Below, piece by piece: positions 1,175 through 10,679 of a DNA stretch of 13,610 nt. Source of the stretch: Candidatus Aenigmatarchaeota archaeon (GTDB lineage Archaea; Aenigmatarchaeota; Aenigmatarchaeia; GW2011-AR5; JACRMX01); assembly GCA_016219485.1 (NCBI GenBank), contig JACRMX010000023.1:1-13610 (forward strand), given 5' to 3'. The position numbers were made by a program, and so were the translations under genes. Position 1 is the first letter of the stretch. Every line of letters begins with the position of its first letter. Under the pieces are notes generated by a model. The model was not told where the DNA came from and did not search any database. It worked only from the letters and a program-made list of their open reading frames with translations.

Positions 1175-1468
1175 TCATAACAATAGACCTGTGCTAAACT
1201 GGCCTATGTTAATATCATTTACCCTCTGTGCTATTCTTAATTTCTCTGCCAGCTCTGAAGTTCTCTTTTTATACTCTTCTCTTGGCAATTCTCCAAGTTC
1301 GTATAGTAATGCAATCTCCTTTATTTCGTTCTGTGTTTTTTTCAAAGGATATAATTCCTGCAAGGAATTTTTATGTACAGCACGAAAGCTCATCATGATA
1401 AGATTCGGCAGAGGTTCGAAACCAGCCAGGCTTAACGGTAATAAAAATACATCGTCTATGACAAACAT
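1175..1468 (-). CDS. gvpG: Gas vesicle protein GvpG. The ORF track extends to 1519 with a GTG; the likely true start is the ATG at 1466-1468.
   Basis: MFVIDDVFLLPL... at the N-terminus and ...LYELGELPREEYKKRTSELAEKL fit the GvpG family pattern. The ATG at 1466-1468 overlaps the gvpF TAA (TAATG) and is preceded by GGAGGAGAAGG (rc of 1471-1481). Position directly after gvpF is the canonical one. Confidence 0.65.
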   Translation of the reverse strand: MFVIDDVFLLPLSLAGFEPLPNLIMMSFRAVHKNSLQELYPLKKTQNEIKEIALLYELGELPREEYKKRTSELAEKLRIAQRVNDINIGQFSTGLLL

Positions 1469-2124
1469 TACCTTCTCCTCCCCATTATTCTTATATCCAC
1501 GAAATTGTACGGGGGCCACGGCCCGGAATATTTAATTTTACATTCTTTGTATTTCTGCCCTAGCCTTTCCACCTCTTCTGAAAATTTCTCTATGTCTCTT
1601 TTGTCAACCAAAAATGATTTGTTGTAAAGCAACCTGTCAGAAAACAGCTCGCCTCTTCGAACTTCGACGACAATCCTGTCCAAAACTGCAAAATCCTCTT
1701 CTTTTACAGCTTGGGTCATTTCTTGTGGAATACCCGTGTCTAAAGGAATGTCTTCTTTTACATCTTTACCTTCTTTTGGGGCAACAACCTTCACACCGAG
1801 CTCTATTTTATTGTCTATTAGTCTGAGGCTCCTTTTTAGAATGGGATAAACATTCCTCATTGTGTTTACCAGAATGCCTTTTGTTCTGAATACCATCCCA
1901 AATGCTACTGGCAAAACTGTATGCTCTTTCAGAAGACATAGCTCAACATCCTTGTGCCTTGCCACGTTGTCATCAGTGGGCTCGTAATCTTTTAGCGGAA
2001 CCTCGCTGGCTATGGCGCATAAATCATGATACGGCAGAGCATAAGGCCTGCCGCCTTCTATACCCTCTTCAGGAAACCCGTTTAGTTTGGTTCTGTTTAT
2101 TATGCAGTAGAGATATTCAGCCAT
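1468..2124 (-). CDS. gvpF: Gas vesicle protein GvpF (GvpF/GvpL family).
   Basis: N-terminal EYLYCII (YxYG-like) and C-terminal FSDRLLYNKSFLVD...YSGPWPPYNFVDIRIMG closely match haloarchaeal GvpF (FTDRLIINKSYLVD...YTGPWPPYNFVDIHIG). The ATG at 2122-2124 lies 2 nt after the stop of the upstream regulator gene. Confidence 0.9.
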   Translation of the reverse strand: MAEYLYCIINRTKLNGFPEEGIEGGRPYALPYHDLCAIASEVPLKDYEPTDDNVARHKDVELCLLKEHTVLPVAFGMVFRTKGILVNTMRNVYPILKRSLRLIDNKIELGVKVVAPKEGKDVKEDIPLDTGIPQEMTQAVKEEDFAVLDRIVVEVRRGELFSDRLLYNKSFLVDKRDIEKFSEEVERLGQKYKECKIKYSGPWPPYNFVDIRIMGRRR

Positions 2125-2126
2125 GG

Positions 2127-3143
2127 CTATTCCTTCTTTTCATAGAGCAAAGATATGCTTTCCACGCCCTGTATGTTCGAGCGTAGGAACATGTTCAGGA
2201 AATTCTTTGCCTGCATGTGATCGTTTAGCATACGGGTTATCCGTTCTCTATCAATAACTGTGTATATCCTTACCTTCTCGAATCCGAGCTTGCTCTGTAG
2301 AAGACCTTCCTTTTCAAGCTTATGTAGCAGCGGGTATAGCGTGCCTGAAGAAAGCAAAACATGAAAGTTATCGTATATTCTCTTTTTTATATTAATTCCG
2401 CATATAGGCTCTTTGGAAACCATAGCAAGAATAATCGTCTTCAATTCGTCTTTCACAAATTTTTCAAAAAAGCCGTTGGTGGTATTTGCTAAAGAGGGTC
2501 CTGTGTCTAGCATATTATTGTCCTTGATTATAATGGCCTTAGAGTGCTTCTCTACTATTCTCCTACAATCGTCCTTGCCTAATTTGGTGATGTCGTACAT
2601 GCAGAGTACAGCGTCGCAATGCAATTTGCTGAGAACTTTTTCCCTCTCTTCGTAATTGAGAAAGCTTTCAGCATTATTAAACCCTATCTTTTTCCTTTTG
2701 TGTACAACCTCATGTTTTAGCGTTTTCGTCGGCTTTGGCTCCAGTGACCTGACCTGTATAGGAGAAGTGCAATCTATTATTATTGTGCCAAAGTCGCCAT
2801 TTCCACTCTTCTTCCCTTCGCCCCCCCCCCTCTCCAACCAGAAAAATTTATTAATGTTCTCTATGGAAGGGTTGATTATTGTCAGTTTTCCAACTTTATA
2901 GTCTATTAGGATTTCCCTTACCTTTTCTAAATTCTCGTCTGTAATCAAAAGGGCATTAGTATTTCTGCCGGACAAGAACTGGACGTAAATTTTATATTTG
3001 TCCGTTTCTGGTGTATATAAATATAAAATATGCCCATTCCCGGACAAGAGATGATTCGTAGATTCGTTAATATTGTCAAAGGTTACTAAATGCTCATTGC
3101 ACAACTTATTTTCTGATGCCCACATATTTTCCAATGCCCACAC
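2127..3143 (-). CDS. Fused transcriptional regulator: N-terminal MEDS-like sensory domain plus C-terminal PadR-type winged helix. Start is either GTG 3143 or ATG 3125.
   Basis: C-terminus has the PadR signature GTLYPLLHKLEKEGLL. The N-terminal ~200 aa has MEDS-like motifs (HILYLY...E, DAVLCMYDITKL...H). The stop is 2 nt before the gvpF ATG, so translation looks coupled. It contains a G10 tract encoding Gly-Gly-Gly. Confidence 0.6.
   Translation of the reverse strand: MWALENMWASENKLCNEHLVTFDNINESTNHLLSGNGHILYLYTPETDKYKIYVQFLSGRNTNALLITDENLEKVREILIDYKVGKLTIINPSIENINKFFWLERGGGEGKKSGNGDFGTIIIDCTSPIQVRSLEPKPTKTLKHEVVHKRKKIGFNNAESFLNYEEREKVLSKLHCDAVLCMYDITKLGKDDCRRIVEKHSKAIIIKDNNMLDTGPSLANTTNGFFEKFVKDELKTIILAMVSKEPICGINIKKRIYDNFHVLLSSGTLYPLLHKLEKEGLLQSKLGFEKVRIYTVIDRERITRMLNDHMQAKNFLNMFLRSNIQGVESISLLYEKKE
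2821..2830. repeat. C10/G10 homopolymeric tract inside the regulator CDS.
   Basis: cccccccccc at 2821-2830. The minus strand reads AGG GGG GGG GGC, giving R-G-G-G in the ORF (WLERGGGEGKK). This is very unusual in the AT-rich sequence here. Confidence 0.95.
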
Positions 3144-3429
3144 CCCATGTCTTGCAATTCATTAACAAAATATTGCAGAGAGAATATCGAAATTTGACTC
3201 GAAAAAATGATTCATATATTTAATTGTGAAAGATGGTATATATAGTTTTTCCAGACGCATTTCCTGTGTCGAACATCGATACGAAATACGACTCTGCATA
3301 TCAGCTTAATAAGTGAACCAACAATTCGTGAAAAGATTTCCTGCGGTTTTTAAGGGACAAAATACCTAATGTAAAGAGTTTACCTGTTGGCTTTTATTAC
3401 TAGCTAAGGCAAATGCCGGCTAGAAGAAA

Positions 3430-3714
3430 TTATTTTTCTTCTTCAGAATGCGTATAAGGTACGCCGCGTCTTCTTGTATTAAGTCTTCTATAGCTTAGAA
3501 TTTTATTGCCACCCTCAGTGATAACAACCTCGTATTCTCCTATCAAATCTTGGCTGCTTGGAACAGCTCTTCTTTCCAGCATCTCAATATTAATCTGCCA
3601 ATTTTTTCCAACCTGCTTGGCGCTTATAATACCGAGCGATTCTTTCTTCAGCGTATCTTTCATCAGGCTGCTTGCCATTTCATTAATTTTAACAAGTTCG
3701 TTCATAAAAATCAC
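3430..3714 (-). CDS. Small hypothetical protein (91-94 aa) ending the gvpA-gvpN operon. Start is GTG 3714 overlapping the upstream stop, or ATG 3705.
   Basis: ORF MIFMNELVKINEMASSLMKDTLKK...YEVVITEGGNKILSYRRLNTRRRGVPY. Start-stop overlap or 5-nt spacing with the paralog gene. No family recognised. Confidence 0.45.
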   Translation of the reverse strand: MIFMNELVKINEMASSLMKDTLKKESLGIISAKQVGKNWQINIEMLERRAVPSSQDLIGEYEVVITEGGNKILSYRRLNTRRRGVPYTHSEEEK

Positions 3715-4058
3715 GGAATGTAAACATAGTCGTTTTCGAGTCTTACTTGTGCGCCAATCCAGTCTTTCAGCGACCCCTTCACATTATAGCTTTCCAGATT
3801 CTCTACATTGAAATAATATTTTAGGAATTGCGCCAGCTTATTCCTTCTGAACTGACCAGCCTTGCTAAAAGCCTTGGGGTCAAAGCTACCATCAGCTTTT
3901 AGGCATGTAAAAAACATCTCTTTTATCTCCTTGTCAGCAGTTTTGACTTTTATGATAATAACATCAGTATCATTTCCAATTCTCTTAGGCTTCTTCTTCC
4001 ATAGGTCGTAGACGCTGTATAGCTTTGCCTCTTTGATAAGTCCGTGGTTTGTTATCAT
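3711..4058 (-). CDS. Hypothetical protein, paralog 2 of a tandem pair (115 aa).
   Basis: Clearly similar to the 4144-4500 product: both share a KLY(D/S)VYDLWKKKP...DTD.I..KVK....EIKE.FFTCLK.DG.F. K..SK....RNKLA.FL.YYF...E.YN.K....DW.G..V pattern. ATG at 4056-4058. Confidence 0.5.
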   Translation of the reverse strand: MITNHGLIKEAKLYSVYDLWKKKPKRIGNDTDVIIIKVKTADKEIKEMFFTCLKADGSFDPKAFSKAGQFRRNKLAQFLKYYFNVENLESYNVKGSLKDWIGAQVRLENDYVYIP

Positions 4059-4143
4059 GAATTAAATTCGGCCAAAAGGTTTATAAAACTTCTTTTTACA
4101 TATCGGAATTCGACATACATAAAAAAACTTGTTGCTATGGGGA

Positions 4144-4500
4144 TTATTGCTTTTTAACAGTAAGGGGAATAAATATTCTATCGTCCTTTATTTGTACACG
4201 TCGACCTTTCCAGTCCTTTATATTTTCCTTTAGATTATACTCCTCTGGGTTTGTGTCAAAATAGTACATGAGAAATCGTGCAAGCTTATTTCTCATGGCG
4301 GCACTTCTTTTGCTTGGGGTTTTTGTTGAAAAGGTTCCATCCCCTTTCAGACAGGTGAAGAATGTTTCTTTTATTTCTTTGTTTCCGCTCTTCACTTTTA
4401 CTACTATAGCGTCTGTGTCATTGAAAGCGACCTGGCGTGGTTTCTTCTTCCATAAGTCGTATACATCATATAATTTAGCATCAACAATAACAGCATCCAT
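4144..4500 (-). CDS. Hypothetical protein, paralog 1 of a tandem pair. The ORF track starts at TTG 4512; the likely start is ATG 4498-4500.
   Basis: Paralogous to the 3711-4058 product (see that entry). The ATG at 4498-4500 is preceded by GGGTG (rc of 4506-4510), which is SD-like. No family recognised. Confidence 0.5.
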   Translation of the reverse strand: MDAVIVDAKLYDVYDLWKKKPRQVAFNDTDAIVVKVKSGNKEIKETFFTCLKGDGTFSTKTPSKRSAAMRNKLARFLMYYFDTNPEEYNLKENIKDWKGRRVQIKDDRIFIPLTVKKQ

Positions 4501-4545
4501 CAAAACACCCAATTTCTTAATATCTTAATAGCTGAAAACATTACA

Positions 4546-4950
4546 TTATATGTAAACGACCTCAGGTCTTGGTATGCTGGGCGAGAATGGCATCCTCCTG
4601 CCACCCCATTTCCATGATCTCTTATCCCATCTCACCAATTTCTTATCAAACCCAGAAAGTTTGGCATTCCAGTTTGAAGCGTAGATGACCTCCCTTCTTC
4701 TCCACCGGCTCTGCCATTTGAGTGCTCTCTTTGCCATTCTTGCTTCTGATCTTTCTGCCCTTCTATCCCACTTCAAGGCAAGCTTATTTGCACGCAAATC
4801 CCATTTTATACTCCAAGAAGAAACCTTTGCCTTGTAGCCTGCTTCATATTTTACTCTTTTAGCTAGCCATTTTGTGCTTATCCTGGCATTCTTGGCATCC
4901 TGCTTTAAATGCCTCATTTCAATTTTTCTTGCTAATCTATTTTGCAGCAT
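4546..4950 (-). CDS. Very basic Trp/Lys/Arg-rich repetitive protein (134 aa) immediately downstream of gvpN.
   Basis: The ATG at 4948-4950 is 2 nt after the gvpN TAA (TAATTATG). The sequence has repeated W-x3-W / KW(D/Q) elements: WSIKWDLRANKLALKWDRRAE...ALKWQSRWRRRE...LVRWDKRSWKWGGRR. No family recognised. Confidence 0.5.
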   Translation of the reverse strand: MLQNRLARKIEMRHLKQDAKNARISTKWLAKRVKYEAGYKAKVSSWSIKWDLRANKLALKWDRRAERSEARMAKRALKWQSRWRRREVIYASNWNAKLSGFDKKLVRWDKRSWKWGGRRMPFSPSIPRPEVVYI

Positions 4951-4952
4951 AA

Positions 4953-5978
4953 TTATAACATTTTTTGAATTCGCTCCTTTATCAATAATCTTTTTTTGGC
5001 TACATCATCAAAACCTAAGAATTTTGATGACATGGCATCAACACATACTTCTTCGAGATAATCTTTACCAAAACCGTTAGTTGCCTGTAAGGCCTGCCCG
5101 ATCATTATTGCTATCCTTGTTCCAGGTTTTTCTACACCGCCTAAAATGTTTCGCAGTTCCCTTACTACATCGACAATCTTCTCAGCCCGCGCTTTCGGCA
5201 GGCCCGAATGAGCTTGAACTATCTTTACCTCTGTATCCCTGTTGTAATAATCCATATGTATTGTTGCAATCCTGTCTAGCAATGCATCCTGCGGCTTGTG
5301 GACGCCTGCGTACTCCATATTATTTGAAGTCAGCAACAATGAGAAATCCGGGTGAACTTTGATGTACCTATCTTCGCCGAACTTAGTTGGCAGTTCCAAT
5401 ACACCCTCTTCCAGAACAGAAAGCAGGATGTTGTTTGCCTCAGGCCTGCTCCTTGAGAATTCATTATAAATTAATGTATAGCCATACTGGCACGCAAGTG
5501 TCAGAGGATTAGAAACCCATCTTGCTTCCATCGTATCTTTATCCTTGAAGACATTGTGAATAAATTTATCCCTTATGGTGGTCATCTCTATCTTTGAATA
5601 GCCGCCGATCAGGTTAGTGGTATTAATGGCTTCATCACCATTAACCCATACAGAAGGCTTTCCGAGCAAATTGGCAGCCTGCAAGGCTAGTGCAGTTTTC
5701 CCGCATCCTGTAGGACCAATAATGTGTACAGGATAGCCAGTCTTTAGCCATAGGAGGATTTTGCCTATATACCTTTTGACTTCGTCTGTCTCAATAAAAT
5801 TTTTCGGCACTGGTGACAAGAATTTTGCTTCGATATCTTCCCTTACTGTAGCAAGCTGGACTTCTCTGACATCTTCCTGTTCGCGTTGTCTAGTAAGTAT
5901 TGTAAGCTTTTTCTCAGCTATGGCTTGGTGAACAGCTCCACCTCTAACTTTTCGCGGATGTTCTGGAACATATTTCAT
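4953..5978 (-). CDS. gvpN: Gas vesicle protein GvpN (AAA+ ATPase).
   Basis: Walker A GPTGCGKT, overall AAA+ layout, ~340 aa, and a position downstream of gvpA. The ATG at 5976-5978 is preceded by AAGAGGA (rc of 5983-5989). Confidence 0.88.
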   Translation of the reverse strand: MKYVPEHPRKVRGGAVHQAIAEKKLTILTRQREQEDVREVQLATVREDIEAKFLSPVPKNFIETDEVKRYIGKILLWLKTGYPVHIIGPTGCGKTALALQAANLLGKPSVWVNGDEAINTTNLIGGYSKIEMTTIRDKFIHNVFKDKDTMEARWVSNPLTLACQYGYTLIYNEFSRSRPEANNILLSVLEEGVLELPTKFGEDRYIKVHPDFSLLLTSNNMEYAGVHKPQDALLDRIATIHMDYYNRDTEVKIVQAHSGLPKARAEKIVDVVRELRNILGGVEKPGTRIAIMIGQALQATNGFGKDYLEEVCVDAMSSKFLGFDDVAKKRLLIKERIQKML

Positions 5979-6125
5979 ATCAGAATCCTCTTATTTTATT
6001 GTAACTTTACCCCTACATCTTTGCTTCTAGATGTGTTCATCCGGCTTCCTACCATTGTATCGTTAGTTGGATACCCTGCGAGCCTAGTGGCGTTGAACAT
6101 GCTCATAAAAAATAAAAGCAGGCGA

Positions 6126-6497
6126 TTAGCCCCAAAAATTCTTTATGTACTCTTGCAGTGTCGTGGCTTGATAGTTCTGGATTTTCGTTGCGAAATTGTT
6201 AATCTTTGTCACAACCTTTCTTGAACCTGCGTTTATCTCTCTTACTGCGGCTTTATTTACCTTTTCCTGTTCTTTTATTGTCTGCTGAAATAATGCGATT
6301 TTGTTGTGCACTTCCTGCACGCCTTTGTACATATTTGCAGCTGCTGCAGCATTCTCTTTTTCCTGCGCTCGTATATCATCCACTAACTTGCTCACGCTTG
6401 TCGCCATAACTCGAACACCCGCTTGCATTGTCTTATAGGTTTCTCTAATCGCTGCCTGTTTTGCTCTAACGCTCCCTGCTACAAGTGGATCAGCCAT
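6126..6497 (-). CDS. Helical Ala/Lys/Gln-rich protein (123 aa) with ~33-residue periodicity, between gvpA and gvpN. Candidate GvpC/GvpO-like accessory protein.
   Basis: The ATG at 6495-6497 is preceded by AGGTGA and lies 13 nt after the gvpA stop. Segments KQAAIRETYKTMQAGVRVMATSVSK and KAAVREINAGSRKVVTKINNFATK are 66 residues apart (2 x 33), with a weaker middle copy (AAAAANMYKGVQEV...). The family assignment is uncertain. Confidence 0.55.
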   Translation of the reverse strand: MADPLVAGSVRAKQAAIRETYKTMQAGVRVMATSVSKLVDDIRAQEKENAAAAANMYKGVQEVHNKIALFQQTIKEQEKVNKAAVREINAGSRKVVTKINNFATKIQNYQATTLQEYIKNFWG

Positions 6498-6510
6498 TTA
6501 ATCACCTGCC

Positions 6511-6735
6511 TTAAGCTTTAGCAGGTGCTGCGATGGCCGCTTGCTCAACCTTTGTTATCTCTTCTGCGTAGTGCAGGTATGTGTCAACGCTTGCCACTAC
6601 AACTCTCGCTTCTATAGTGACTATCTCTATTCCCACCAAGTTTACTCTTGCCCATGCATCTACAACCAAACCCTTGTCAAGGATTCGGTCGATAACTTCT
6701 GCAAGACTTGCTGTATCTGGCGCTTGATTTACCAT
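6511..6735 (-). CDS. gvpA: Gas vesicle structural protein GvpA.
   Basis: [45 protein letters not shown] is the hallmark GvpA core. 74 aa. The ATG at 6733-6735 is preceded by GAGGTG. Confidence 0.95.
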
Positions 6736-6768: not shown

Positions 6769-6896
6769 GTTGCCCCCAATTCCTTCTGCAATTAAATGAT
6801 GCGTCTGCATCACTTTATTTAATGCAGTATAAAATTGCACAACCCTTTTAATTATATTGCAATCCGTTCAATATAAACATAAGCAAAAAATCGATG

Positions 6897-6919
6897 TCCG
6901 TATCGGATTTCGATACGCA
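6897..6919. promoter_or_regulatory. Inverted repeat CGTATCG-gattt-CGATACG in the gvpA upstream region.
   Basis: Seen directly. A related CGATACGaaATACGA element lies at 3276-3291, upstream of the regulator gene. Confidence 0.3.
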
Positions 6920-8970: not shown

Positions 8971-9087
8971 AAAAGTTAGAAACTTTTCCTTGTATTATTA
9001 GAAGGTTTTTTTCTGCTTTCCCCTCGATATTAGGGGGAAAGAGAAAAAACGTACGGGCATGGAAAAACAGTGCTTTTTCCAAATGTT
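8971..9087. repeat. Composite palindromic intergenic repeat, copy 1 (modules C-A-B), upstream of hjc.
   Basis: C is aaaagttagaaactttt (7-bp inverted repeat). A is gaaggtttttttctGCTTTCCCCTcgatattAGGGGGAAAGagaaaaaacgtacggg. B is CATGGAAAAAcagtgcTTTTTCCAAATGtt. It matches 9592-9735 almost base-for-base apart from an extra B module there. Confidence 0.7.
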
Positions 9088-9145
9088 ATCCTTTTTTATT
9101 ACAGAACCTAAAGGCTCTCCAATAAAAACTAACGCCTTCTATTAT

Positions 9146-9523
9146 ATGCTCATGGTAAAAACTTATAAGAAAGGCTATACAGCTGAAAGGGAAATTGTTC
9201 ATACCCTGTATAAAATGGGGTATGCTGTTATACGGACCCCGCGTTCAGGCCGCATATGCCTGCCAAGCCCTGATATTATTGCTGCAAAACATGGTAAAAT
9301 TATTGTTCTCGAATGCAAGTCACGCAAGCGCGCTTTTAACGTGCCTGCAGAGCAGGTGGAAGAGCTGAGAGAATGGGAAAAAAGAGCAGGAGCAACAGCT
9401 TATATCGCATGGAAGGTTGCACACAAAGGGTGGTTCTTTTTCCCCATGTCTGTTGTAGAAGAAAACAGGGGAAATATTGGAAAAAGAATGCCGCAAAAAG
9501 CCATAGGCATTGACGATATCTGA
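9146..9523 (+). CDS. hjc: Holliday junction resolvase Hjc (archaeal PD-(D/E)xK nuclease). The ORF track start at 9059 lies inside the repeat and is probably not used.
   Basis: KKGYTAEREIVHTLYKMGYAVIRTPRSG...PDIIAAKHGKIIVLECKSRK matches the Hjc core (ERE..., PD, E.K). About 125 aa, typical Hjc size. ATG at 9146 or 9152. Confidence 0.8.
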   Translation: MLMVKTYKKGYTAEREIVHTLYKMGYAVIRTPRSGRICLPSPDIIAAKHGKIIVLECKSRKRAFNVPAEQVEELREWEKRAGATAYIAWKVAHKGWFFFPMSVVEENRGNIGKRMPQKAIGIDDI

Positions 9524-9591
9524 AACAGATAAATCAAAAATAAGAGTTTTTGAAAACCCCTTATCCCGCAGAGAATTGAATAGATATGAGA

Positions 9592-9735
9592 AAAAGTCAG
9601 AAACTTTTTCTATACATGGAAAAGGCTGTGCCTTTTCCAATGTTTTGCCAGAAGGTTTTTTTCTCTTTCCCCTCAATATTAGGGGGAAAGAGAAAAAAAC
9701 CGTATGGGATTGGAAAAACGTGGTTTTTCAAAGTC
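9592..9735. repeat. Composite palindromic intergenic repeat, copy 2 (modules C-B-A-B'), downstream of hjc.
   Basis: aaaagtcagaaactttttc (C). Then ttctataCATGGAAAAGGctgtgCCTTTTCCAATGtt (B, 9609-9644). Then gaaggtttttttctctttcccctcaatattagggggaaagagaaaaaaaccgtatggg (A, 9651-9706). Then a degenerate B: ttGGAAAAACgtgGTTTTTCaa. Confidence 0.7.
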
Positions 9736-9755
9736 CTCAAGCTTTGTATGTAATG

Positions 9756-10553
9756 TCAGAAAACTGCCTCAAGCCAGGCGCCAATCAATATCAGCGTCTC
9801 TGCAAGAGCAAGATAGATGAGCGCGTCTTTTACAACAGCGTTGAATGCTATTGAGCCGTATTTTTCCCGCAAAAGCCCTATTGAAAGTATTCCGCCAGCC
9901 AGGCCTGCAAGAAAATAGCCGGCGATCTCCGGCACGCCATGAAGCGCTATTGCGCCCAGGCCCAGCGGAACGCCATACAGGTATGCCTGCATGGTATGCA
10001 TGCCCTCTCCTATAAGCGACCTTATGTTAAAGCCAAGATAAACTGCTATGATAGAAGCGTTCCATGCCAGTATAAATACAGCGCCTGCACCGAACATGAT
10101 TGAAAGTATAAAGCTGAGTATCATGGTCTGCGAATTATTTATAAAATATTTCAGGAAAAGGTAGCTGCTGTCGACCGTGGTCCCTGATACCATGTTTTTA
10201 AGCGTGTTTGTCTGCAGGGAAAATACATTCATATCCGGGGCAAAAACAAAAATAAATGCAAGCGAGAATATTACCCCGAGAAAAAATGCTGAATAAACGT
10301 ATATCGCGCAGATGTGCCGGGTAAATATATTACCGCTCGGGTTTTTGTCCCTTCGCTCTTCTATGACGAATATGCGCTGGAAAAATGGCACAAAAAGTAT
10401 TGTTATAAACGTTATTGTGAGCAGAGATGCTTCTGAGGGAAATATGCGCCATGCAAAAAATGATGCTATCAGAGAATACACGAAAGCAACAACAAATATG
10501 CGCCATGGATCCTTTTCTGCGGATTTCGGGTTTATCAGTGATTCAAGAACCAT
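9756..10553 (-). CDS. Integral membrane protein, SpoIIM/DUF95-like.
   Basis: Multi-pass hydrophobic protein with a C-terminal HGVPEIAGYFLAGLAGG segment resembling the conserved HG(I/V)xE(I/L)PA motif of the SpoIIM/DUF95 family. Family call is tentative. Confidence 0.5.
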   Translation of the reverse strand: MVLESLINPKSAEKDPWRIFVVAFVYSLIASFFAWRIFPSEASLLTITFITILFVPFFQRIFVIEERRDKNPSGNIFTRHICAIYVYSAFFLGVIFSLAFIFVFAPDMNVFSLQTNTLKNMVSGTTVDSSYLFLKYFINNSQTMILSFILSIMFGAGAVFILAWNASIIAVYLGFNIRSLIGEGMHTMQAYLYGVPLGLGAIALHGVPEIAGYFLAGLAGGILSIGLLREKYGSIAFNAVVKDALIYLALAETLILIGAWLEAVF

Positions 10554-10679
10554 GATATCTATTTATTTTCCGGTTTAAATATAGTTTTAAAAAACATGCC
10601 CTTAAATTTATTTTATAGCAATACAAGGAAATAAACAGTATATTACTTCCTTGTTTGCTATATATTAGAAAAGCAATGC

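Follow-up and report, generated by a model that had tools for sequence, protein, structure and literature searches.

How are gas-vesicle genes controlled in an archaeon whose cluster shows no gvpD? Transcriptional control of archaeal gas vesicles is understood only for the haloarchaeal pair GvpD/GvpE, and most haloarchaeal clusters are without this pair (PMC4390858). The stretch analyzed here (the window) is the entire 13.6-kb contig JACRMX010000023.1 (13,610 nucleotides, nt) of a metagenome-assembled 'Candidatus Aenigmarchaeota archaeon' genome, and its minus strand carries a gas-vesicle (gvp) cluster in which an open reading frame (ORF) at 2127-3143, referred to below as the regulator, lies directly upstream of gvpF and gvpG. 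We think it probable, with moderate confidence, that this gene encodes a GvpE-type PadR regulator with a fused MEDS-like sensor, that a conserved palindrome is its target, and that a poly-G tract within the gene makes it switchable. GvpE-type control is known; new are the fusion of a MEDS-like sensor to a GvpE-family regulator, the candidate operator of this protein and, probably, a homopolymer switch. In the searchable literature, including searches for gas vesicle and PadR, Aenigmarchaeota and Woesearchaeota, we came across no account of DPANN gas-vesicle clusters or of how they are regulated.

Judged by its relatives, the ORF is a genuine gene and not a chance one, because about 40 homologues share its architecture and its place before gvpF-gvpG recurs in all loci that we examined. 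Ten proteins came back from a word-indexed search of 5.8 billion, and 33 from an exhaustive HMMER search that ran a profile of the N-terminal domain (N-domain) against 1.84 billion representatives. Nearly all family members are 240-350 amino acids (aa) long and follow the same two-domain plan. The position directly upstream of gvpF-gvpG recurs in every locus examined, namely nine close-homologue places, six further genomes (including Iainarchaeum, 'Nanoarchaeota' and Woesearchaeota) and five additional loci, in agreement with an initial sequence-only reading of the window that saw a cluster-specific regulator heading the gvpF-gvpG unit. Several of these loci have a divergent gvpA..O / regulator-F-G.. 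layout comparable to the haloarchaeal gvpACNO / gvpDEFGHIJKLM. By the homologues recovered, the MEDS-GvpE regulator family is confined to DPANN gas-vesicle clusters.

Two nt separate the stop codon of the regulator (TAG, 2129-2127) from the gvpF ATG (2124-2122), exactly as first read from the sequence. We infer that the regulator and gvpF-gvpG are co-transcribed, in which case the regulator gene would be the opening cistron of the gvpF operon. Translational coupling of the regulator to gvpF and responsiveness to a ligand, both also put forward in the sequence-only reading, are plausible but putative features. The likely start is ATG 3125 (residue 7 of the maximal ORF, giving 332 aa), because orthologues begin at the position of this residue. 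NCBI annotates 335 aa with a start at residue 4. The 5' end of the ORF (3108-3143) contains an imperfect 18-nt direct repeat, GTGGGCATTGGAAAATAT / GTGGGCATCAGAAAATAA, encoding the peptide MWALEN-MWASEN, which makes the choice between GTG 3143, residue 4 and ATG 3125 ambiguous.

A GvpE homologue with a MEDS-like N-terminal domain

The PadR signature noticed at the C-terminus in the sequence-only reading is borne out by Pfam: PF03551 matches aa 238-287 (nt 2283-2432), spanning GTLYPLLHKLEKEGLL, at 35.3 bits versus a cut-off of 27. PadR proteins are also the only solved structures in the PDB that match the C-terminal domain by sequence. The predicted model contains a winged helix with strands at 282-286 and 292-296, followed by a helix at 299-333 that is predicted to be the PadR-type dimerisation helix. 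This full-length model, built from 10 sequences, is poor, with a predicted local distance difference test score (pLDDT) of 60, and the N-domain was remodelled from 30 sequences (see below).

GvpE is described in the literature as a leucine-zipper-like protein. For comparison with the regulator we used GvpE from the gvp clusters of Halobacterium pNRC100 and Halogeometricum pHBOR01. Both proteins themselves pass the Pfam PadR model (30.0 and 34.4 bits, respectively), and by these scores the leucine-zipper-like GvpE belongs to the PadR family. The DNA-binding domain of the regulator aligns with GvpE aa 77-159 in BLASTP (36 bits, E 2e-7) and with GvpE in hhalign (98% probability, E 2.9e-13). When one family profile is scored at equal database size, GvpE reaches 49.6-53.9 bits versus 39 bits for the top solved PadR protein, and one relative of the regulator is labelled by JGI as 'PadR family transcriptional regulator, activator of gas vesicle formation'. 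In both haloarchaeal clusters GvpE is encoded directly upstream of gvpF. It abuts or overlaps gvpF, an overlap of 8 nt being on record (PMC4390858), and the overall cluster layout is shared, including the divergent forms. Thus, on the PadR match, the alignment and the shared position upstream of gvpF, we assign the DNA-binding half of the regulator as a GvpE homologue sitting in the place of GvpE.

The sequence-only reading had regarded the system as distinct from GvpD/GvpE. This does not hold for the DNA-binding half, which is homologous and occupies the same position; it does hold for the MEDS-like N-terminus and for the missing gvpD, as neither GvpD_P-loop nor GvpD_bR2 matches any ORF of the window and no gvpD was seen in the loci of close homologues. 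GvpE is a 191-aa protein with an unrelated N-terminal region of ~77 aa, whereas the regulator has a MEDS-like domain of ~200 aa in its place. Haloarchaea encode a GvpD partner, and the host here is a low-GC DPANN archaeon. With short-form PadR proteins, which consist of a winged helix-turn-helix and one C-terminal helix (PDB 4esb, B. subtilis PadR 5x11 and hsRosR 6qfd), the regulator shares the winged helix with its GT(L/I)YP motif, the C-terminal dimerisation helix (here predicted) and palindromic operators of 14-20 bp (PMC7145548; here candidates). It differs from them in the added N-terminal domain, in having CG instead of GY in helix 2, and in that its closest characterized relative, GvpE, is an activator.

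The N-domain was originally taken for a MEDS sensory domain. The regulator itself stays below the Pfam threshold for MEDS (PF14417), scoring 16.7 bits over its full length and 18.2 bits when the domain is taken by itself, versus a cut-off of 29.8, and its alignment is limited to aa 157-200, corresponding to profile positions 117-160 (44 positions). Its relatives come closer. MEDS is the top N-domain match in 25 of the 31 family members, all of which match PadR, and P0015 scores 29.3 bits across profile positions 2-160 of 161. With the N-domain profile we also recovered a group of paralogues 331-352 aa in length (E 2.5e-20 to 1e-10), and P0075 among them (E 1.1e-14) passes MEDS at 30.1 bits. 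In the Pfam comparison no family other than MEDS competes for the N-domain; a single member of the family has a faint match to the KaiC model (E 0.008). The designation 'MEDS-like' therefore holds by transitive homology and not from the regulator's own score.

The family resembles DcmR (MEDS plus helix-turn-helix) and the MEDS histidine kinases in its MEDS-type domain, which together with a DNA-binding domain makes a one-component architecture, in the conserved H...C-x-Y...H pattern at the domain ends, and in having some members near or at the Pfam cut-off. It differs from them in its PadR/GvpE-type output, in its limitation to DPANN gas-vesicle clusters, in the sub-threshold score of the regulator, and in having no hydrocarbon metabolism genes in its vicinity.

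Searched against the PDB by sequence and by profile, the N-domain found no significant match. The model built from 30 sequences (pLDDT 74.5, predicted template modelling score 0.70) adopts an alpha/beta RecA/KaiC-like fold whose top structural matches are the KaiC-like FlaH, RadA and KaiC. FlaH (4yds, 2.5e-4) is the only Foldseek match below E 0.001. This archaellum protein (FlaH/ArlH) binds ATP with a Walker A loop, whereas the N-domain is without the loop and only 12-16% identical. The Walker A motif GxxxxGK[ST] is found in none of the 31 family members, which have P-x-x-D-K-Y as the loop, and we rejected an active ATPase role for the domain on these grounds. Conserved residues are H38, K49, D124, S127, E168, C181-x-Y183 and H200; K49 sits where the Walker A lysine would be and the invariant D124 where the Walker B aspartate would be, and H38, C181, Y183 and H200 are candidate ligand contacts.

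In the reading that we favour, the MEDS-like domain, divergent and without a Walker A loop, would gate the DNA-binding half on a signal, which could be a small molecule, a nucleotide or redox state. The gating role held in haloarchaea by the separate KaiC-like GvpD would then reside in the fused N-domain. GvpD is likewise encoded immediately upstream of a GvpE-type DNA-binding module, and the predicted fold places the N-domain in the same KaiC/RecA-like class, a tie that we treat as a lead and not a result. The two differ in that GvpD is a separate polypeptide of 536 aa, in which the Walker motifs are intact and a second basic domain is present, and shares no significant sequence similarity with the N-domain.

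Alternatively, the N-domain could be a built-in GvpD equivalent, that is, a degenerate and possibly nucleotide-binding KaiC-like module that controls oligomerisation, stability or turnover and is no small-molecule sensor. GvpD is itself KaiC-like (PF06745, 9e-15) and works by lowering GvpE levels (PMC4390858); the structural matches, the one member that touches the KaiC model, the residues at the Walker positions and the missing gvpD of the window all suit such a module. However, hhalign of the N-domain against a GvpD profile of 2 sequences only gives probabilities of 2.3% for the whole protein, 4.5% for the P-loop half and 0.4% for the bR2 half, so that sequence homology with GvpD is unsupported. 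The Walker A loop is missing in all 31 members and the sequence signal is that of MEDS, and we consider a built-in GvpD unlikely.

A conserved palindrome as candidate operator

The element CGATACG, to which the sequence-only reading had drawn attention, occurs three times in the window versus 0.42 expected, and each occurrence is the half-site of a palindrome that is conserved across related loci (designated by L numbers). Besides the perfect copy upstream of gvpA, which is presumed to be the main target gene, the copy at 3265-3283 has a 15-nt core that stops 22 nt short of the regulator's TATA-like box, and the core of the copy at 4099-4117 ends 13 nt before TTTTATAAA at 4080-4088. In a sample of 12 related loci (138 kb), TCG-N5-CGA is found 42 times versus 9.2 expected and T[AG]TCG-N5-CGA[CT]A 24 times versus 0.1 expected. 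The window alone shows no enrichment of ATCG-N5-CGAT with one mismatch (4 versus 3.0 expected); enrichment emerges only with full half-sites across loci. Nearly all copies are intergenic and upstream of gvpA, the regulator, gvpN, gvpO or x115 (a 115-aa gene between gvpN and gvpO), and the palindrome is retained where regulator identity drops to 32-36%.

The spacing of these sites is also regular. In the window clade, L004, L007 and L014, the gaps between the core and the first TATA-like hexamer fall into two classes that are one helical turn apart. The wider class, of 22-24 nt, is that of gvpA and the regulator; the narrower, of 11-13 nt, comprises x115, gvpO, the regulator of L014 and the small genes next to the L004 cluster. 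Palindromes of 14-20 bp are known targets of PadR-type dimers (PMC7145548). GvpE acts through an upstream activating sequence of 20 nt that borders the BRE promoter element and must be close to it (PMC4390858), and the placement of the palindrome near TATA-like boxes resembles this arrangement, as does the presence of a ~20-bp element, here a candidate, upstream of both the gvpA promoter and the promoter of the regulator's own operon. The GvpE element is composed of two 8-nt portions that are 4 nt apart, whereas the one described here is an inverted repeat, TRTCG-N5-CGAYA.

We favour activation because the sites are upstream and phased in the window clade and because of the homology to GvpE. 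Specifically, the regulator would bind T[AG]TCG-N5-CGA[CT]A as a dimer and activate gvpA and its own operon from the upstream palindromes, with a further site at the internal promoter of the small genes. A degenerate third copy downstream of the regulator's own TATA-like box is a possible autoregulatory site, and this weaker site would provide feedback.

Several points weigh against this reading. Most characterized PadR proteins are repressors that are released by a ligand. The TATA-like boxes are guesses, chosen by eye or by regular expression in AT-rich DNA. In L010, L012, L033, L034 and L040 the palindrome precedes the start codon by 16-60 nt and adjoins the ribosome-binding site, a placement that fits repression or autoregulation better. 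TCG-N5-CGA is absent throughout the family locus L041, and stand-alone PadR paralogues as well as a second MEDS-PadR paralogue in related clusters could bind the motif in place of the regulator. To these we add the sub-threshold MEDS score of the regulator and the origin of all poly-G alleles (described below), which are consensus sequences of short-read metagenome assemblies.

The first of these points corresponds to a classical PadR repressor, a dimer of which would sit on the palindromes and block gvp transcription until a signal sensed by the MEDS domain frees it. The known binding mode (PMC7145548) would serve such a protein, and so would the sites in the five loci above, which lie near or in the core promoter or 5' untranslated region, and the degenerate copy downstream of the regulator's TATA-like box in the window. 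Nevertheless, the closest characterized homologue, GvpE, is an activator (PMC4390858), and all three strong sites in the window are upstream of TATA-like boxes, helically phased and non-overlapping, and repression seems to us rather improbable.

It is also conceivable that the palindrome belongs to another factor, either a stand-alone PadR or the second MEDS-PadR paralogue, with the targets of the regulator lying elsewhere. Stand-alone PadR genes of 124-127 aa are found at cluster edges in L003 (18619-19002) and L041 (1709-2083); they score 79-84 bits on the profile of the regulator's DNA-binding domain, which makes them close paralogues. L043 and L044 contain the second MEDS-PadR paralogue (REG2). 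On the other hand, in all sampled lineages but one, including short contigs, the motif is found together with the gene that precedes gvpF. It is present in the Woesearchaeota locus L014, where the gene directly upstream of gvpF is a short PadR-only form, and the window, whose cluster runs off the contig end, has no second PadR gene. We regard a different binding factor as distinctly unlikely, and retain the regulator as the protein that probably acts at the palindrome.

Other observations concern the surroundings of the palindrome. In L001 (9835-9905), an insertion of ~47 nt separates it from the TATA-like box of the regulator, giving a gap of 69 instead of 22 nt. This recalls the Halobacterium c-vac gvpD promoter, in which a 22-bp insertion abolishes activation by GvpE. 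A conserved and very hydrophobic protein of 90-91 aa (MAVFGAGLD...) is encoded near the clusters of L001 (3978-4250) and L004 (1876-2151). The palindrome lies upstream of the TATA-like box of its gene in both (L001 4307-4321, L004 2207-2221). In L001 the first hexamer is 3 nt away and TTTATA 11 nt away, in L004 the gap is 11 nt, and the gene is possibly an extra member of the regulon. Finally, the long putative leader between the TATA-like box and gvpA (~6770-6860, minus strand) contains an inverted repeat, CTGCATTAAAT...ATTTAATTGCAG, that is conserved in L001, L003 and L006 and may form an RNA hairpin or provide a further binding site.

A poly-G tract of variable length in the regulator gene

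The regulator gene of the window contains a run of ten G in a region that encodes a moderate-confidence loop of the N-domain model, which distant homologues are without. Loss or gain of one G would bring a stop at aa 121 or aa 145. Comparison of seven assemblies shows that tract length varies and that the regulator is out of frame in four of them (Table 1). L003 and L045 are 99.7% identical over 1263 nt and differ by one substitution and by three G in the tract. The site of the tract is kept in orthologues with 50-77% protein identity despite different flanking codons and a different codon phase, and GGG makes up 17% of the Gly codons in the window. A metagenome scan revealed no further alleles of the coding tract.

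Long G/C runs are concentrated at such genes. Among the 13 runs of at least 8 in 240 kb, 12 are within, or no more than ~260 nt upstream of, GvpE-type regulator genes. Independent tracts are found in L010 (7935-7943, G9), L012 (9795-9808, G14, at the 3' end of a histidine kinase gene), L032 (36-51, C16), L034 (3747-3754, C8) and L043 (8231-8241, G11).

This pattern looks like phase variation by slipped-strand mispairing, a general mechanism in prokaryotes (PMC2831843). As in the homopolymeric-tract contingency loci described there, a long coding G run varies in length between near-identical strains and gives in-frame and out-of-frame alleles. The tract described here differs in being located in an archaeal (DPANN) regulator of a buoyancy organelle and in being known from assemblies alone. 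In our favoured reading the tract would set stochastically whether the full-length regulator is produced, in a manner that we infer to be reversible. A frameshift would end translation ~700 nt before gvpF and, if the genes are coupled, could also lower gvpF translation.

The length differences could instead be artefacts of sequencing or assembly, the gene being always intact and not phase-variable, as long homopolymers are error-prone in assemblies of the kind from which all alleles come. Retention of the tract at the same site in diverged orthologues with different flanks and phase, the modest share of GGG among Gly codons, the independent tracts in L010, L012, L032, L034 and L043, and the association of 12 of the 13 long runs with regulators argue against this explanation, which we hold to be possible but doubtful.

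A more far-reaching view, offered tentatively, is that DPANN archaea have a GvpD/GvpE switch in one polypeptide, in which a KaiC-fold (MEDS) domain without Walker A senses a metabolic or redox signal and gates a GvpE-type activator that occupies the conserved upstream palindrome, while the poly-G tract flips the regulator at random and the population hedges its buoyancy. Related clusters would swap the input module, using a receiver domain fed by a histidine kinase of the cluster or a second MEDS-PadR paralogue upstream of gvpA. If so, random switching would let a population of tiny cells hedge between buoyant and non-buoyant states.

In several DPANN lineages a GvpE homologue is conserved together with a fused sensor and a candidate operator. 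This combination makes three questions accessible, namely how GvpE-type proteins recognize DNA, which signal controls buoyancy in DPANN cells, and whether an archaeal regulator undergoes phase variation. A compact regulator with its operator could also serve engineered gas-vesicle reporters.

Gene content of the window and of related clusters

Table 1 Features of the window and poly-G alleles of related loci
Feature	Locus	Position	Strand	Remarks
Regulator ORF (REG)	window	2127-3143	-	maximal ORF from GTG 3143, 338 aa
N-terminal MEDS-like domain	window	2526-3089	-	aa 19-206
GvpE-like PadR winged helix-turn-helix and long C-terminal helix	window	2145-2477	-	aa 223-333
G10 homopolymer (C10 on + strand)	window	2821-2830	-	in frame; codes ..R-G-G-G..; candidate slipped-strand on/off switch
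G10 tract	L001	10294-10303		in frame
G10 tract	L006	4101-4110		in frame
G9 tract	L003	10019-10027		out of frame
G9 tract	L005	1273-1281		out of frame
G10 tract	L040	7893-7902		different flanks, out of frame
G12 tract	L045	3002-3013		out of frame
Perfect palindrome CGTATCG-N5-CGATACG	window	6899-6917		upstream of gvpA; core ends 23 nt before TTTATAT (6871-6877)
Operator-like site CGTATCGATGTTCGACACA	window	3265-3283		upstream of regulator; 2-mismatch copy; conserved in L001, L003, L005, L006
TATA-like box CTATATATA	window	3237-3245	-	preceded by GAAAAA; putative regulator-gvpF promoter
Degenerate third copy GAGTCAAATTTCGATAT	window	3184-3200		downstream of TATA-like box; conserved in L001, L003, L006
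Palindrome TATGTCGAATTCCGATATG	window	4099-4117		between paralogous small genes, upstream of x115 (3711-4058)
gvpA	window	6511-6735	-	PF00741, 1.4e-14
gvpN	window	4953-5978	-	TIGR02640, 8e-96
gvpO	window	3430-3714	-	final gene of upstream gvpA-...-N-...-O unit
gvpF	window	1468-2124	-	PF06386, 9e-42; ATG 2124-2122
gvpG	window	1175-1519 (maximal ORF)	-	NCBIfam GvpG, 1e-13

The gvp genes on the minus strand are ordered gvpA, a 123-aa gene, gvpN, three small genes, gvpO, the regulator, gvpF, gvpG and a 135-aa gene that terminates close to the contig edge; the cluster runs past the contig end. The true start of gvpG is likely to adjoin the gvpF stop, since the family match begins only at residue 18 of the maximal ORF. 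The non-gvp part of the window carries genes of ordinary archaeal types, namely those for a CBS-domain protein, an Hjc resolvase and a trio of HMG-CoA synthase, thiolase and OB-fold protein.

Four genes of the cluster are without a family match. The 115-aa gene (x115) and a 122-aa gene (4144-4512) are tandem paralogues, separated by a palindrome and TATA-like box, and the pair is kept between gvpN and gvpO in DPANN clusters. The product of the gene at 4546-4950 has 134 aa, among which W, R and K are abundant, and contains repeated K-W-D/x-R-R motifs. The 123-aa protein encoded directly after gvpA (6126-6497), in the position of haloarchaeal gvpC, is helical.

Complete gas-vesicle clusters with haloarchaeal-like gene order are found in Aenigmarchaeota, Iainarchaeum, Woesearchaeota and 'Nanoarchaeota' (the window, L001-L014 and L040-L045), and their regulators vary in modular composition. 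In addition to the short form of L014, PadR-only forms are present in L041 and at the cluster end of L003. Upstream of the called 128-aa PadR gene of L041, the N-domain coding region (~6100-6500) is broken by an in-frame TAA. In the Aenigmarchaeota loci L043 and L044, a MEDS-PadR paralogue of 333-352 aa is encoded directly upstream of gvpA (L043 8001-9059, L044 8001-9002), and a second regulator of ~275 aa lies between gvpO and gvpF (L043 4346-5170, L044 4376-5206). The 'Nanoarchaeota' locus L012 contains a histidine kinase and a response regulator within its gas-vesicle cluster (8990-10677), the latter consisting of a receiver domain and a C-terminal part similar to the GvpE-like domain (27% identity over 191 aa in tblastn).

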